Of a DNA stretch of 64,000 nucleotides, positions 17,415-64,000 are shown in pieces (the stretch's first letter is position 1; the number at the start of each line of letters is the position of its first letter). The DNA lies in the sequence record MZ681930.1. One strand, given 5' to 3'. Origin of the DNA: Enterobacteria phage phiC600P9. A program made the position numbers and the translations under genes. Below the pieces are notes generated by a model, which had not been told where the DNA came from, made no database searches, and was given only the letters and a program-made list of their open reading frames with translations.

Positions 17415-17579
17415 TTACTCTTCTTTTTCTTTAGATTCCTCTTTTTTCTTTTTAGGAATCTGTTCAGGACCTTTATTTACTACAGCGCCTGATGTTGTTC
17501 CAGTGGAGATATTTTCAGGATTACCACCTGAATCTCCAGCTACCATATCTTCTTTGATAAATTCTTTATATGTTTTCAT
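17415..17579 (-). CDS. small protein with internal-protein-like capsid targeting sequence (hand-called)
   Basis: 54-aa ORF MKTYKEFIKEDMVAGDSGG...KKKKEESKEKEE; N-terminus resembles the T4 IP targeting sequence MKTYQEFIAE; AGAGG RBS. Confidence 0.45.
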   Translation of the reverse strand: MKTYKEFIKEDMVAGDSGGNPENISTGTTSGAVVNKGPEQIPKKKKEESKEKEE

Positions 17580-57772: not shown

Positions 57773-58310
57773 TTACTATTTCCAAAAGTTTATTATTTTT
57801 AAGGTAATTAGCCTTTTCTAGGACTTCAGAAGCATATTTAGAACCAGCTTTAACATTCCATCCCGAATTATAAGAGGATATTGCTTTTCTTATATCGCCC
57901 TTATGTATATTTAACCAATAAGAAAGTTCAATGTACGCCCAGGAAGCTGAATTGGATCGTTTATTCAACATTCTTTTTATTTCAGCATCGGTCATATTAT
58001 AACCAAGTTCCTTAACTCTCGCTCGCATAGTAGGCAAATAATTTTGGAACATTCCGTAGGCGTGATGCTTTGGTTTAGATTTTAAATTAACTCCGGCAGA
58101 GCTTTCTTGCCATAAAATAGCAGCCATTATATGACCTAATCCGCTTTTGTGGATATTTTTATGTGTTTTATATTTTCCATCCTTAGAAAATTGTTCCCCG
58201 AATTGATACGCGTAACGCATGTTATCGAGTTGGACATTACTGAAAGTATGCTCGGAGCTATGTGCCATCATAGAAATGGCCAATAGACCAGCGAGTAGTG
58301 CTTTTCTCAT
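57765..58310 (-). CDS. secreted lytic-transglycosylase-like protein (SLT domain)
   Basis: 181-aa ORF with signal peptide and SLT motifs (ILWQESSAG, YGMFQ, SYNSG). Confidence 0.55.
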   Translation of the reverse strand: MRKALLAGLLAISMMAHSSEHTFSNVQLDNMRYAYQFGEQFSKDGKYKTHKNIHKSGLGHIMAAILWQESSAGVNLKSKPKHHAYGMFQNYLPTMRARVKELGYNMTDAEIKRMLNKRSNSASWAYIELSYWLNIHKGDIRKAISSYNSGWNVKAGSKYASEVLEKANYLKNNKLLEIVND

Positions 58311-58317
58311 GCTTACC

Positions 58318-58779
58318 TCATTGAGTTTTAATTACTGCTTTAGAAGCCTTTCCAGGTAAACGACGACTGTTGATAATTGCCATCCTGCATTGAAGCGACG
58401 GGTCTTTGAACTTCGCATTAGGTTTACAAACTGTAAATCCAAGCCAAAGATTTCCATCTGTGATTTCTAAACGCCCAGGACGATATTCAACCCCATCAAT
58501 AAAATCCTCATCAATGTCAGGACGCGGAGGCATACTCAGGAATTCATTAACTTCTAAAACATGGTCTTTTATTTTATGGAATAATTCAAAAACATATGTC
58601 TCATCAATCTCCCGTTGAATTGCACGATCAAGAAGATGCTGAGAATATTTTAGATGAAACGATGAGACCCCTGCTGCTTTTGATGCCTCACGAATCTCAT
58701 TGTTAATTTGACGAAACTCCGACTCAAAGTGACGACGAAGCTTATTTCGTCGGATAAAAACTTCTGTGTTGATAGTCAT
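58318..58779 (-). CDS. regB: site-specific endoribonuclease RegB
   Basis: 153-aa ORF, T4 RegB length and position. Confidence 0.75.
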   Translation of the reverse strand: MTINTEVFIRRNKLRRHFESEFRQINNEIREASKAAGVSSFHLKYSQHLLDRAIQREIDETYVFELFHKIKDHVLEVNEFLSMPPRPDIDEDFIDGVEYRPGRLEITDGNLWLGFTVCKPNAKFKDPSLQCRMAIINSRRLPGKASKAVIKTQ

Positions 58780-58806
58780 GTTATTCTCCTCTTAACTGAT
58801 AGAAAA

Positions 58807-58836
58807 ATTATACCACAGTCAAGAGGAAAAGTAAAC
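58807..58836 (-). promoter_or_regulatory. early promoter (GTTTAC-N18-TGGTATAAT) for regB
   Basis: plus strand attataccacagtcaagaggaaaagtaaac. Confidence 0.55.
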
Positions 58837-58838
58837 AA

Positions 58839-59159
58839 TTATTCTTTAAATCTAATCAATTTATTCATAGACTTTGAAACTTCTGCACGAACCTCATGTA
58901 GGTTTTTGAGCTGTTCAAGACGCTGCTCATAGTAAGCAATTTCATCTTCTTCGAGACAGTCCTGCGAATCTTCTTTAAGATAACGTGCATAGTCCTGGAA
59001 AGCTTTACGGACTACTTCCTGGAAGTCATCAAGACTTTGAATTTTCTTAGGAGCAACAGATACACGACGAGGGGCAGTATAATACTCATAACCAAACCCT
59101 GCGCTTAATTGAGCCATTAATATTTTTCCTCTGGTTGGAACACAGCACGACAAGCCCAC
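58839..59159 (-). CDS. hypothetical protein
   Basis: 106-aa ORF. Confidence 0.5.
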
Positions 59160-59419
59160 ATACTGGCTTCTTTGAGTTTCGTTTTAGCAATAGTTAACTG
59201 ATCGAGGCTTTCAGCATAATTCTTCGCGAATTCACAGTCTTCACAATTATCTAGTGCTTCCCAAAATTCATCGTATAAAGCATCAAAGATAAGTCCTAAA
59301 CGAACTTCAGCGTCTTTGATAGCATTCACTTTACCGATTTTCTCTTCAGTGTGCGGCTTATAACCCTTAATATCTTCAATCATATTTGACTTCCTCACCA
59401 GTACATAAATCATATTCAA
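59117..59419 (-). CDS. hypothetical protein
   Basis: 100-aa ORF. Confidence 0.5.
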
Positions 59420-59597
59420 CTAAACGAATAGGTTCATGAATGCCATATCCCTGAACAGAAATTTCTGTCGTGGGATAAATTCCATCAATATCGCCCATAT
59501 TCCACGCTTCATTAAATTGCTGTTCGCCTGAATTACTAAACCATTCGGCGAAAGCATTTAGCACATCTTCAGAACCTTCAATAATTATCTTTGCCAT
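59376..59597 (-). CDS. small hypothetical protein
   Basis: 73-aa ORF coupled to the GrcA-like gene. Confidence 0.45.
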   Translation of the reverse strand: MAKIIIEGSEDVLNAFAEWFSNSGEQQFNEAWNMGDIDGIYPTTEISVQGYGIHEPIRLVEYDLCTGEEVKYD

Positions 59598-59971
59598 TAC
59601 AAACTCTCGGTAAAGGTACGAGCGATAACGTCGCGCTGCTGTTCCGGAGTCAGAGAGTTAAAGCGAACTGCATAACCGGATACACGGATGGTCAGCTGCG
59701 GATATTTTTCCGGATGCTTAACTGCATCTTCCAGAGTTTCGCGACGCAGAACGTTAACGTTCAGGTGTTGACCACCTTCAATTTTAACTGTAGGCTGTTG
59801 CTCAATTTCAATTTCACGGGCATGCAAACCATAGAAAATTTCTGGGTCTACAAAAGAGTCCTCTTTAAAGGTTTTAGATACAATAATTCGTGCTTGAATA
59901 CCATCTTCAAAATAAATAGTACCTTTATGTGTGCCTTCAAGAATTTGATATGCTTTCATATAACCTCTCAA
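59597..59971 (-). CDS. autonomous glycyl radical cofactor (GrcA/YfiD-like)
   Basis: 124-aa ORF; C-terminal ~60 aa near-identical to E. coli GrcA including glycyl-radical motif RVSGYAV; this DNA is markedly GC-richer than its surroundings. Confidence 0.85.
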
Positions 59972-60297
59972 TTAGAAAATAAATTTATCCAAGATTGTTC
60001 TTTAATTAAAAATGGCTCAGAATCATATGCCATTAAACTCTGTGTGATTAGTCCTTTAAAAGGCCCATCAATAAATTCCATGGTAAAATATGGAATTTTA
60101 TTCATTAGCCGTGCATTAGGAGCAGTGCACAAAACTCTGCATCCTTTGAATACGCCTTTTTGTAATTTGTATTGCTTAGGATAAAATTCGCTTAAAATGT
60201 TATTTTTTGCCAAAATTTCAAAATGATTCACCAATTTATTTTTAATAGTTTTTGGTGAAAAATAAAGATATTCGAAAAGCTGAGTGTCTGTCATCAT
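59968..60297 (-). CDS. hypothetical protein (start revised to the Met overlapping the upstream stop)
   Basis: track ORF 59968..60348; ATGA-coupled start [10 protein letters not shown] at about 60297 is more likely. Confidence 0.45.
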
Positions 60298-60833
60298 TGC
60301 ATTCCGATTACGAAAAACTGTGGACGAGTAATACCACCAATACAACATTTAATATTACAGCAGCAGTGTACAGTGTCAATATGGACACTATAAATCTTAT
60401 CCATATCAGGAGATTTGACAGGCTCATCAATTATATACAAAATTCGCGAAAGCTTTAAACCTCTGAACTTGCTTCCTTTATTACCGATAAAACTGCGCAC
60501 AGAATCAGTAAATAAACGAAAACGTATATCATCATTAGAATAACGCGAAAATTCCTTTTTGATGCTATTTGCAGAAATTTTAGCGTAAGCTGAAGTATTA
60601 GAAAGAACAATAACTGTTCCACCGTCATACAACCAATTAGCGGCAAAATTAGTTACTGCAGTTGATTTACCGGATTGACGTCCACCATCTAGTCGAAGTG
60701 TGCAATACTGCTTAAGTAAGTCTTCAAATGGTGGGATATAATCGTTTTTACAAATTTCTTCTACTCTAGCATCAGAATAGTGTGTAAAAGCATTCATCAG
60801 GGATAGATAAGGACCAGTTAAAAATGTTCTCAT
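60294..60833 (-). CDS. P-loop NTPase with Cys-rich C-terminus
   Basis: 179-aa ORF; Walker A GGRQSGKST, Walker B-like ILYIIDE, tail HCCCNIKCC. Confidence 0.5.
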   Translation of the reverse strand: MRTFLTGPYLSLMNAFTHYSDARVEEICKNDYIPPFEDLLKQYCTLRLDGGRQSGKSTAVTNFAANWLYDGGTVIVLSNTSAYAKISANSIKKEFSRYSNDDIRFRLFTDSVRSFIGNKGSKFRGLKLSRILYIIDEPVKSPDMDKIYSVHIDTVHCCCNIKCCIGGITRPQFFVIGMQ

Positions 60834-60972
60834 TTCTTCTCTCTAAGTTTGGGCCATTCCGTGGCGCATGAATTGTCCATTTCTGTATTTACCCATTACC
60901 GCACTTGGGCTCGACCTTATTACAGTTGGCGGGAATCCCTCACAGAATCATGAGGTCCAGGTTGTTCCCATA

Positions 60973-61446
60973 TTATTTGAACGATTTAACGTACTGAATA
61001 GAACCTTTACTATTCACGAAAGCGATTTTACCATTTTTATTATACATGGTAGCAGTACGCTGATAGCCATAAGTTTGCTTACCAGATTGATAACCAACTA
61101 ATGCAAAATTATCTTCACCCATTTTATTCTGTTTAGCGCGAATGCGTTCATGACCATGTGCCATAAGAACCTTAGCATCACCAGTTGCAATGGATCGACG
61201 AGTTTTTTCATCTTCAACTGTATTAACAAAGTCGTCAAATGAATCAAATTTAGCATGAGATTTATTATACAGTTTTCCATCTACTGCATAATTATATCCC
61301 TGTACATCCATCTCAACTTCTGTACCATCATCCAATACAGCAGTGATTTTCTGTCCTTTTTTAAATTTCAAAAGATCAGTAAAAGATTCAGCAATAATTT
61401 GAGAATTAATAGCTGCTTCAGTAATAAATTCTTGATATGTTTTCAT
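60973..61446 (-). CDS. internal (capsid-packaged) protein with capsid targeting sequence
   Basis: 157-aa ORF beginning MKTYQEFITE, the T4 IP targeting-sequence signature; at the ipII/ipIII locus next to e. Confidence 0.7.
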   Translation of the reverse strand: MKTYQEFITEAAINSQIIAESFTDLLKFKKGQKITAVLDDGTEVEMDVQGYNYAVDGKLYNKSHAKFDSFDDFVNTVEDEKTRRSIATGDAKVLMAHGHERIRAKQNKMGEDNFALVGYQSGKQTYGYQRTATMYNKNGKIAFVNSKGSIQYVKSFK

Positions 61447-61462
61447 GTGTATCCTTTAATTT

Positions 61463-61780
61463 TTATTCTTTAGGGAAGTTTTTAGAATATGCATCATAAA
61501 GCTTATTTCCAATACGGCGGAAAACTCTAGCCGCAAAACGATTTTCTGGGTTTTTAATCATGATTTGCATCATATAAGTACCCGCGTCAGAAAGAGCTTC
61601 TTCATAGTACCCGTTAATTTCTTTAAGAGTCCTACGTTTACCACCAGGACCATCAACAGTGATTTTCCATTTACCTGTAGAAGTGCGACTTGGCGGCTCA
61701 ACTTGTTCAATCCAGATATAACCGCCTTCTACACGTTGTCCTGCAGCAGATTCTGCAATAAATTCTTTATAGGTTTTCAT
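61463..61780 (-). CDS. internal (capsid-packaged) protein with capsid targeting sequence
   Basis: 105-aa ORF beginning MKTYKEFIAE. Confidence 0.7.
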   Translation of the reverse strand: MKTYKEFIAESAAGQRVEGGYIWIEQVEPPSRTSTGKWKITVDGPGGKRRTLKEINGYYEEALSDAGTYMMQIMIKNPENRFAARVFRRIGNKLYDAYSKNFPKE

Positions 61781-61851
61781 GTGTTTCCTTTAAATATTTT
61801 AATTAGTAATTGTGAATATACTATCACAGTTTTAGGAGAAAGTAAACAACT

Positions 61852-62382
<531 letters not shown>

Positions 62383-62838
62383 TTAAAAGAGGTTGTTCAT
62401 TATTCGGTAAAGTGAAGGACCCATCACATATTGCCACTGAGTACGAGGAATAAGAGCAAAAGCGTCCATCTCTGGAATCATAACACCATCTTTATTTTCA
62501 AAATAAGACTCACAATGGCAATTTCTAAACATCTCATGCTCTACTGGAATCGTATAATAAAATAACTGTAAGTCTTTATTACTAGAATATTTAAATACAC
62601 CTAGGTCTTCTAGAAGGTCTGGATTATAATTGCTAAAACCGGTCTCTTCTAAACATTCTCTTCGTGCTGCATCTAGTGCGCTTAAATCAGAATTTTCTAC
62701 ACGCCCCTTTGGAATATCCCAGCGATGTGCCATCATTCCATGCTTACGAGAACCAGTAACCCGACCCATAAATAAATCTTTATCTTCTGTCATGAAGATA
62801 ATACCAGCTGATAATGTTTTCATTTTAATTTCCTGCAT
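62383..62838 (-). CDS. nudE: Nudix hydrolase NudE (e.1)
   Basis: 151-aa ORF with Nudix box GRVENSDLSALDAARRECLEETG. Confidence 0.85.
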   Translation of the reverse strand: MQEIKMKTLSAGIIFMTEDKDLFMGRVTGSRKHGMMAHRWDIPKGRVENSDLSALDAARRECLEETGFSNYNPDLLEDLGVFKYSSNKDLQLFYYTIPVEHEMFRNCHCESYFENKDGVMIPEMDAFALIPRTQWQYVMGPSLYRIMNNLF

Positions 62839-63308
62839 TCAGTGATAAAGTTATTTAAATTTTGAGTATATTTCTTTTCATCATAAATCTTTTGCTGTCT
62901 GCGTAAACGCCATGGCATTTCAATGAACATGCGCCATATTCCTGATAATACTGCTGCTGTAAAAATATTAACAAGTATAGTTAAAAGAACCCAATCTCCT
63001 ATTCTGTCCATTGGATTTTTTATAAAAAAGTAAAATACTAACGATGATATAGGAAGACTAATGATATACCACAGAAGAACCTTCTTATCTGTGAACCAAT
63101 CAGCATTCGTTAACTTAGCGCGACCATTTTGAATACACACGAATTTATCATCTGTTACAGTAAATGGCTTAGCTGCTTGATATCCCATTCTAAACTCCCT
63201 AATCAACAAATTTTTCATATCTTCGGAACAACCATTCCAGTCAACTCTATCAACTGGAATGCCATCATCCCCATCGTCTAAGTCATACCAGCGAGTTTTT
63301 AAAATCAT
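62820..63308 (-). CDS. membrane-associated hypothetical protein (e.2-like)
   Basis: 162-aa ORF with hydrophobic segments. Confidence 0.5.
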   Translation of the reverse strand: MILKTRWYDLDDGDDGIPVDRVDWNGCSEDMKNLLIREFRMGYQAAKPFTVTDDKFVCIQNGRAKLTNADWFTDKKVLLWYIISLPISSLVFYFFIKNPMDRIGDWVLLTILVNIFTAAVLSGIWRMFIEMPWRLRRQQKIYDEKKYTQNLNNFITECRKLK

Positions 63309-63667
63309 TTAATTTTCCTACAATCACTCACAAACTCTTTCACTGATTCATTTTCAATATAAGACATGTAGTTGTTATATTCTTTTAATTGTATTTTGTA
63401 ATCATTTTTTCTTTGCCAATTTATTTTAAAATTATCATAATGAAAATATAAAATGATACCAAAGAATGAAAATAATGAAATAATTTTAGTATAACAAAGC
63501 TCACTCCAAACTTCTGTTATATTTACTGTGCCGTTGATGTTTAAAATAAGACAGTCAATTAACAATCCAAAAAGACTACCCGCAAGAGCTGCAGCCAACG
63601 CCACAGCAAAAATTAAAAATGACTCAGAAAACGAATATTTGACTTTATTTAGTTTTGGCTTTTGCAT
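63305..63667 (-). CDS. membrane protein (e.3-like)
   Basis: 120-aa ORF with two TM segments. Confidence 0.5.
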   Translation of the reverse strand: MQKPKLNKVKYSFSESFLIFAVALAAALAGSLFGLLIDCLILNINGTVNITEVWSELCYTKIISLFSFFGIILYFHYDNFKINWQRKNDYKIQLKEYNNYMSYIENESVKEFVSDCRKIK

Positions 63668-63966
63668 CGTGATTCCTTAACAAATTTCATAATTTCATCA
63701 AATTCATACGCGGCAAGTTTAAGCTGATGTTCCTTTTTAATCTTTTTACACTGTGCTTTCCAATCACGTACGCGTTTACGATAATGCCTTCCTTGATACC
63801 AGTATCCTACCCAATTTACAGGTACTAATAAAAATGGAACTATTAATGGAAGAATTAGCATTAACACAAGTATTTCGCCAGAATCAATATCAGTCATAAC
63901 ATCTAAAACACCTCCAATAATCAATAGAATTACAAATGATATGAGTATAACAGGACCTATTAACAC
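63649..63966 (-). CDS. membrane protein (e.4-like)
   Basis: 105-aa ORF with two TM segments. Confidence 0.5.
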   Translation of the reverse strand: MLIGPVILISFVILLIIGGVLDVMTDIDSGEILVLMLILPLIVPFLLVPVNWVGYWYQGRHYRKRVRDWKAQCKKIKKEHQLKLAAYEFDEIMKFVKESRCKSQN

Positions 63967-64000
63967 ATCAGTAGGAATTATCTGGCGCTTTAATTCATAC

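Follow-up and report, generated by a model that had tools for sequence, protein, structure and literature searches.

Among the closest described systems for the locus analyzed here are the internal head proteins of phage T4. Each of the T4 proteins Ip1, Ip2, and Ip3 inhibits a distinct GmrSD type IV restriction enzyme, and none protects against the enzyme of another (PMC12373910). The first 10 residues of IPIII are sufficient to send this protein, and foreign proteins fused to it, into the T4 head (PMC9026906; PMC3012670). Within this targeting sequence Y4 and F7 matter for targeting and I8 and E10 for cleavage by the prohead protease gp21, the cleavage motif of which is (L/I)-x-E (PMC9026906). 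IPIII that lacks its targeting sequence is active in the cytoplasm (PMC9391042). The T4 protein IPI*, an inhibitor of GmrS/GmrD from E. coli CT596, is small and injected, and its propeptide (MKTFKEF..ITE), which is related to the N-termini described below, is cut after residue 19. IPI is encoded next to 57B; ipII and ipIII are found at another locus, in the order vs.8 - denV - ipII - ipIII - e.

In this report, we describe the e-proximal internal-protein locus in a stretch of 64,000 nucleotides, referred to here as the window. Two open reading frames beginning with MKTYQEFI and MKTYKEFI had been predicted at positions 60973-61780, and both were confirmed, on the minus strand. The gene order in the window is vs.8 - ip4 - ip10 - e, which is the same as that of phage PP01, where the two genes are annotated as ipIV and ip10. 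Both genes are located between e and vs.8, in the slot that holds denV, ipII, and ipIII in T4, and the flanking DNA is 92-97% identical to that of the T4 ipII/ipIII locus. The coordinates of the features are presented in Table 1.

Table 1. Features of the e-proximal internal-protein locus, and of one gene outside the window
Feature	Position	Strand	Remark
vs.8	60294..60833		ip10 and ip4 lie upstream of it
ip4 (IpIV) precursor, 157 aa, start MKTYQEFITEAAIN (MKTYQEFITE...)	60973..61446	-	open reading frame and translation; DUF7412; phrog_3155
ip10 precursor, 105 aa, start MKTYKEFIAESAAG (MKTYKEFIAE...)	61463..61780	-	open reading frame and translation; phrog_3966
lysozyme gene e	61852..62346		ip10 and ip4 lie directly downstream
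Ip4 capsid targeting sequence MKTYQEFITE, codons 1-10	61417..61446	-	Y4, F7, I8, and E10 present; I-T-E motif at 8-10
Second predicted gp21 site in Ip4, I-A-E followed by Ser21, codons 18-20	61387..61395	-
Ip10 capsid targeting sequence MKTYKEFIAE, codons 1-10	61751..61780	-	Y4, F7, I8, and E10 present; I-A-E motif at 8-10
Variable cassette, 768 bp (ip4 and ip10 body)	60974..61741		replaces 1433 bp of T4 (denV, ipII, ipIII body)
54-nt direct repeat, copy 1: ip10 ribosome-binding site and first 12 codons	61745..61798	-	shared with T4 ipIII
54-nt direct repeat, copy 2: ip4 ribosome-binding site and first 12 codons	61411..61464	-
e-ip10 intergenic leader with GTTTAC...TATATT promoter-like element	61781..61851	-	conserved with the T4 e-ipIII leader
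Two exact T4 late-promoter motifs TATAAATA	62360..62380	-	just upstream of e; an identical pair is found there in T4
85-aa internal head protein	L007 5834..6091 = MT630408.1 69833..70090 (outside the window)	-

Over this locus, the window was found to be 100% identical to the Tequatrovirus phiC600P9 record MT630408.1. The coordinates of the window and of MT630408.1 are equal at 17.4 kb and one base apart at 61 kb, which reflects either a 1-nt indel between approximately 17.6 and 60.8 kb or a near-identical isolate.

The gap between vs.8 and ip4 (60834..60972), where the GC content rises slightly to about 0.42, was considered as a possible RNA gene of about 140 nt. This candidate was rejected, since the stretch is a degraded 5' part of vs.8; scans of the window for tRNAs and with Rfam gave no matches. 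The sequence between the two genes aligns at 92% identity, interrupted by about 10 nt, with the 5' end of the T4 vs.8 coding region, and vs.8 is thus N-terminally shortened here (179 aa versus 219 aa in T4).

On the basis of their sequences, the two open reading frames are the known T-even internal head proteins Ip10 and Ip4. The 157-aa protein is exactly T2 IpIV, and the same sequence was found on 459 contigs. It matches Pfam DUF7412 (PF24183) with 319.4 bits, against a cut-off of 27, over residues 1-157 of a 158-position profile, and phrog_3155 ("internal virion protein") with an E value of 6e-102. A fold search of BFVD returned Ip4 of phage K3 (UniProt Q38388) at 99% identity. The mature body of Ip4 is present in 470 phage records, 291 of them at 99% identity or higher and a further 159 at 60-80%; the latter include phages of Klebsiella and Salmonella. 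There is no difference of substance between Ip4 of the window and Ip4/IpIV of T2, K3, and RB32, which have the same length and the same position near e. In T2, Ip4 stands alone after e, whereas in the window ip10 lies between e and ip4.

Ip10 matches phrog_3966 over residues 1-105 (E value of 5.8e-34) and falls into the same 90%-identity cluster as "Ip10 [Enterobacteria phage Pol]" (CAA84455/Q38382) and ORF124c of RB69. Its mature body is 100% identical to PP01 ip10, and the protein is 70% identical to Ip10 of SP18; no difference of substance was seen from Ip10 of Pol, SP18, PP01, and VR20. The Ip10 body was found in 189 phage records with a lowest identity of about 48% (Enterobacter phages), and the distant relatives, at 48-53% identity, are phages of Enterobacter and Cronobacter such as CC31, PG7, and Pet-CM3-4. 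A second homologue search seeded with SP18 Ip10 returned no further members. When the Ip10 body was searched exhaustively with phmmer against 1.84 billion representatives, one true relative emerged (52% identity). Five other phmmer matches were large multi-repeat proteins of unrelated beta-sandwich families, carrying filamin, SdrD-B, Calx-beta/CBM60, and RTX protein matches, and were regarded as non-specific.

The names K3 Ip4 and Pol Ip10, which belong to old accessions, presumably stem from Repoila et al. 1994, reportedly a study of T-even polymorphism. Both families were already named in the 1990s and are present in hundreds of sequenced phages, so the finding of these genes is correct but ordinary and already known. 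Position, targeting sequence, gp21 motif, basic charge, and database families all support the reading of the two as internal-protein genes. We consider it highly probable that they are ip10 and ip4 of a T2/T4-like Tequatrovirus at the e-proximal locus, with the steps carried over from T4 that are described below.

The lengths of 157 and 105 aa had been expected to differ from those of T4 IPIII and IPII, and this is borne out by the T4 proteins of 193 and 100 aa. Ip4 and Ip10 share with IPII and IPIII the locus, the 10-residue targeting sequence, the gp21 motif, the leader DNA, and the basic charge. In BLASTP comparisons of Ip4 and Ip10 with IPII and IPIII, the clear match was limited to the first 12-14 residues. 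The one longer alignment, of Ip4 with IPII over residues 1-70, was gapped, had an identity of 31%, and was anchored on the targeting N-terminus. A full-length alignment of high identity to IPII or IPIII would have spoken against the original prediction; when it was looked for, no alignment extended past the targeting sequence, and neither Ip4 nor Ip10 has body homology to the T4 proteins. When the bodies were compared, including Ip4 with Ip10, the clear match covered the first 12-17 residues only. Beyond approximately residue 13, then, the bodies of Ip4 and Ip10 are, as judged by these alignments, unrelated to each other and to IPI, IPII, and IPIII of T4. The predicted divergence of the bodies therefore holds in that they are unlike IPII and IPIII; it does not hold in the sense of drifted versions of IPII and IPIII, since Ip4 and Ip10 are rather separate conserved families.

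Since ip4 and ip10 sit where T4 has ipII and ipIII, it could be argued that they are alleles (true orthologues) of the T4 genes, altered past recognition in an arms race. An initial hhalign comparison of Ip4, using a profile of 15 Ip4 sequences, with IPIII gave a probability of 63-77% and seemed to agree with such a history. This candidate distant homology vanished after the targeting sequence had been trimmed. With the ten targeting columns removed, the score was 15.9, which is within the range of 100 column shuffles (13.5 ± 2.7 sd, maximum of 21.5) and equal to that of the reversed alignment (15.8). A Foldseek search with the Ip4 model against BFVD, a set of predicted structures of viral proteins, placed only K3 Ip4 below an E value of 0.001, and there was no IPIII model among the 50 matches listed. 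In addition, each family is highly conserved in itself, and the Klebsiella phage SmallBear_ER8 encodes an Ip4-like protein and IPIII side by side, so the two are separate genes and not alleles. Such an allelic relationship is therefore regarded as very improbable, and Ip4 and Ip10 are treated below as families of their own.

The edges of the variable segment were determined with blastn, using positions 58000-64000 of the window and 60000-78000 of T4. T4 homology stops at 60973 and is picked up again at 61741, in codons 11-13 of ip10, which correspond to the start of T4 ipIII; hence the cassette listed in Table 1 replaces the longer T4 segment. One edge of the cassette falls exactly where the DNA of the targeting sequence ends. 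The two copies of the 54-nt direct repeat are 83% identical, and the start of ip4 (61415-61459) is 91% identical to the matching segments of both T4 ipII and T4 ipIII. This arrangement fits a model in which recombination within the conserved leader and targeting DNA swaps whole cassettes, and the conserved DNA of the ribosome-binding site and targeting sequence is probably the recombination site. Because most records with the Ip4 body (291 of 470) carry it at 99% identity or higher, the locus varies by cassette exchange and not by sequence drift.

The e-proximal locus behaves as an expandable cassette array. In SmallBear_ER8 it holds e, the Ip4-like gene, and IPIII (L010 905..2043). In Escherichia phage UGJNEcP3 it holds e, a 132-aa open reading frame, IPIII, IPII, denV, and another internal head protein (L011 990..3231).

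The gene denV, which encodes endonuclease V for the repair of UV damage, is absent from its T4 position at 60973/60974, and PP01 and T2 are the same at this locus. Classically, T2 has been observed to be without v gene function and to be more UV-sensitive than T4, which fits the absence of denV from this locus.

Both proteins carry the pattern MKT(Y/F)xEF at the N-terminus, as MKTYQEF in Ip4 and MKTYKEF in Ip10. The four residues mapped in T4 for targeting and processing are kept across both the Ip4 and the Ip10 families. A gp21 motif is present in Ip10 as I-A-E(10) and in Ip4 as both I-T-E(10) and I-A-E(20). Across the Ip4 family, Glu20 is near-invariant and position 18 is I, L, or M in all 14 members that cover the region, within a segment (residues 11-24) that is otherwise variable. 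An AlphaFold2 model of Ip4 puts the site at codons 18-20 in an N-terminal helix, formed by residues 4-25, that precedes the globular body. The conserved (I/L/M)-x-E in a variable linker, together with its position in the helix, leads us to predict a propeptide of 20 residues for Ip4. Judged by conservation and the model, cleavage after Glu20, giving a mature protein of 137 aa from Ser21, appears to be more likely than a mature protein of 147 aa from Ala11. T4 IPI loses a propeptide of 19 residues, and Ip4 may comparably lose 20.

The predicted mature form of Ip10 starts at Ser11 and has 95 aa, a mass of 10.8 kDa, and a pI of 9.6. For Ip4, cleavage at Glu10 would give 16.5 kDa with a pI of 9.1, and cleavage at Glu20 would give 15.5 kDa with a pI of 9.3. 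The predicted mature proteins are small and basic, with a net charge of +4 to +5 and a pI of 9.1-9.6, like IPII* (pI of 9.56) and IPIII* (9.65) of T4. We found no virion proteomics or N-terminal sequence for Ip4 or Ip10 in the searchable literature, so that packaging and cleavage of both are predictions.

A degenerate DNA pattern for MKT[YF][QK]EF, with one mismatch allowed, was found at three sites in the 64-kb window, versus 0.00 expected from 100 shuffles. These sites are ip4, ip10, and a homologue of gp61.1, a 54-aa open reading frame on the minus strand (17415..17579), just upstream of the primase gene 61. This protein starts with MKTYKEFIKE/DMVAG... and has Y4, F7, I8, and E10; T4 gp61.1 starts with MKTFKEFIKE. 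The remainder is of low complexity (Gly/Ser/Thr) and ends with KKKKEESKEKEE. The protein was assigned to phrog_1823 (unknown function); in addition, its residues 8-53 match the C-terminus of phrog_2086, a longer family. No paper discussing the targeting-like start of gp61.1 was found.

Since the gp61.1 homologue is set among early replication genes, its packaging is doubtful, and the motif alone may not guarantee that a protein is packaged. By the same reasoning, the N-termini of Ip4 and Ip10 might be relics on ordinary cytoplasmic phage proteins that are never packaged, as the same N-terminus on a product of an early replication-gene cluster, where packaging seems unlikely, could suggest. We find this scarcely credible for Ip4 and Ip10: both proteins and their families retain every one of the four residues with mapped functions, the late-transcribed e immediately precedes the genes, and the first 10 residues alone suffice for head targeting in T4, as described above.

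T4 biology suggests the following course of events for Ip4 and Ip10. The two late promoters ahead of e would give late transcription of e, ip10, and ip4 together. Through their targeting sequence, the precursors would bind to the scaffolding core in the prohead. The prohead protease gp21 would cleave both on the C-terminal side of Glu10, and a further cleavage following Glu20 is probable in Ip4. The basic mature forms (approximately 10.8 and 15.5-16.5 kDa) would remain with the packaged DNA and be injected together with it. As for the expression signals, the paired late promoter motifs probably drive late transcription through e, ip10, and ip4, and no terminator-like site was found on the minus strand from e to the end of ip4. 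A generic sigma-70 scan made no call on the promoter-like element in the e-ip10 leader. In T4, ipII and ipIII each have a promoter-like spacer of their own, whereas ip10 and ip4 of the window are only 16 nt apart.

The original prediction also held that injected internal proteins are anti-restriction effectors. This is true of Ip1-Ip3 of T4, where Ip2 and Ip3 have known GmrSD targets (ECOR21/BrxU and ECOR17, respectively); no such target is known for Ip4 and Ip10, and the corresponding role for these two is only an analogy. When ip4-10 were assayed against the common enterobacterial GmrSD groups, there was no reproducible inhibition (PMC12373910, Supplementary Fig. 9); the ip4 and ip10 of that work are equated with the families described here by the shared nomenclature of Repoila et al. 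1994. Phage T2, which has an identical Ip4, is still restricted by the GmrSD enzymes from CT596, ECOR21, and ECOR17, which are the three characterised. If Ip4 and Ip10 are anti-restriction proteins, their targets therefore lie elsewhere. The 2026 paper on BrxU makes no mention of internal proteins.

The source phage has a second internal-protein locus, next to 57B, which encodes an 85-aa protein (MKTFKEFATKTTITE/SSHG...; phrog_3499, "internal head protein"). This protein is unrelated to T4 IPI, which is encoded at the corresponding T4 locus and is itself unrelated in sequence to Ip4 and Ip10. No homologues of IPI, IPII, or IPIII were found at either internal-protein locus of the source phage, and from its gene content we predict that this phage is sensitive to GmrSD from CT596, ECOR21, and ECOR17.

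Searches for a fold or family match that would hint at a mechanism were negative for both proteins. The predicted fold of Ip4 has no close solved relative. Profile searches of the PDB gave nothing below an E value of 0.2, NCBIfam gave nothing near its cut-offs, and in Pfam the DUF7412 match of Ip4 was the sole significant one, with only sub-threshold matches to CsgH and Rbx_binding for Ip10. A function for Ip10 based on its fold was rejected; the model is poor (pLDDT of 48) and unreliable, and the BFVD search returned just a member of its own family, from Pet-CM3-4. In Ip4, the invariant non-basic residues include D47, H64, D90, H99, E111, and D112, which suggests a specific folded surface.

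Ip4 and Ip10 may alternatively be mainly structural, as basic, DNA-associated parts of the core that aid prohead assembly or neutralize packaged DNA and have no specific host target. The basic charge of the predicted mature proteins and the lack of a GmrSD target for ip4-10 would agree with such a role, as would the abundance of the T4 internal proteins, at about 300 copies each per head, and the slower building of heads by IPIII mutants, with a burst of about 40% of normal (PMC9026906). However, all three T4 internal proteins, long described as "mysterious", proved to have specific anti-restriction targets. Generic neutralization of charge fails to explain why discrete, conserved families come and go between close relatives, and the many invariant non-basic residues of Ip4 also argue against it. 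A mainly structural role is thus considered to be unlikely.

A role in counter-defense may take either of two forms. By analogy with the T4 proteins, Ip4 and Ip10 could each block, stoichiometrically, a single first-line host nuclease that is directed against glucosyl-hydroxymethylcytosine DNA and lies outside the tested GmrSD variants; we regard this as plausible, at slightly less than an even chance. More tentatively, and with some doubt, Ip4 and/or Ip10 might neutralize a first-line defense beyond the tested GmrSD variants, such as another class of modification-dependent nuclease or a system that is not a nuclease. Ip4 might do so through a fold that has no close solved relative and through its invariant Asp/His/Glu residues, which could even point to catalysis instead of mere binding.

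No new biology emerges from the present sequence analysis. What it provides is confirmation of which genes these are, the boundaries of the exchanged cassette, and a proposed second processing site in Ip4. Host immunity encounters injected internal proteins before any other phage product. Since Ip4 (470 records) and Ip10 (189 records) are common in T-even phages of the therapeutic type, knowledge of their targets would help to predict host range.
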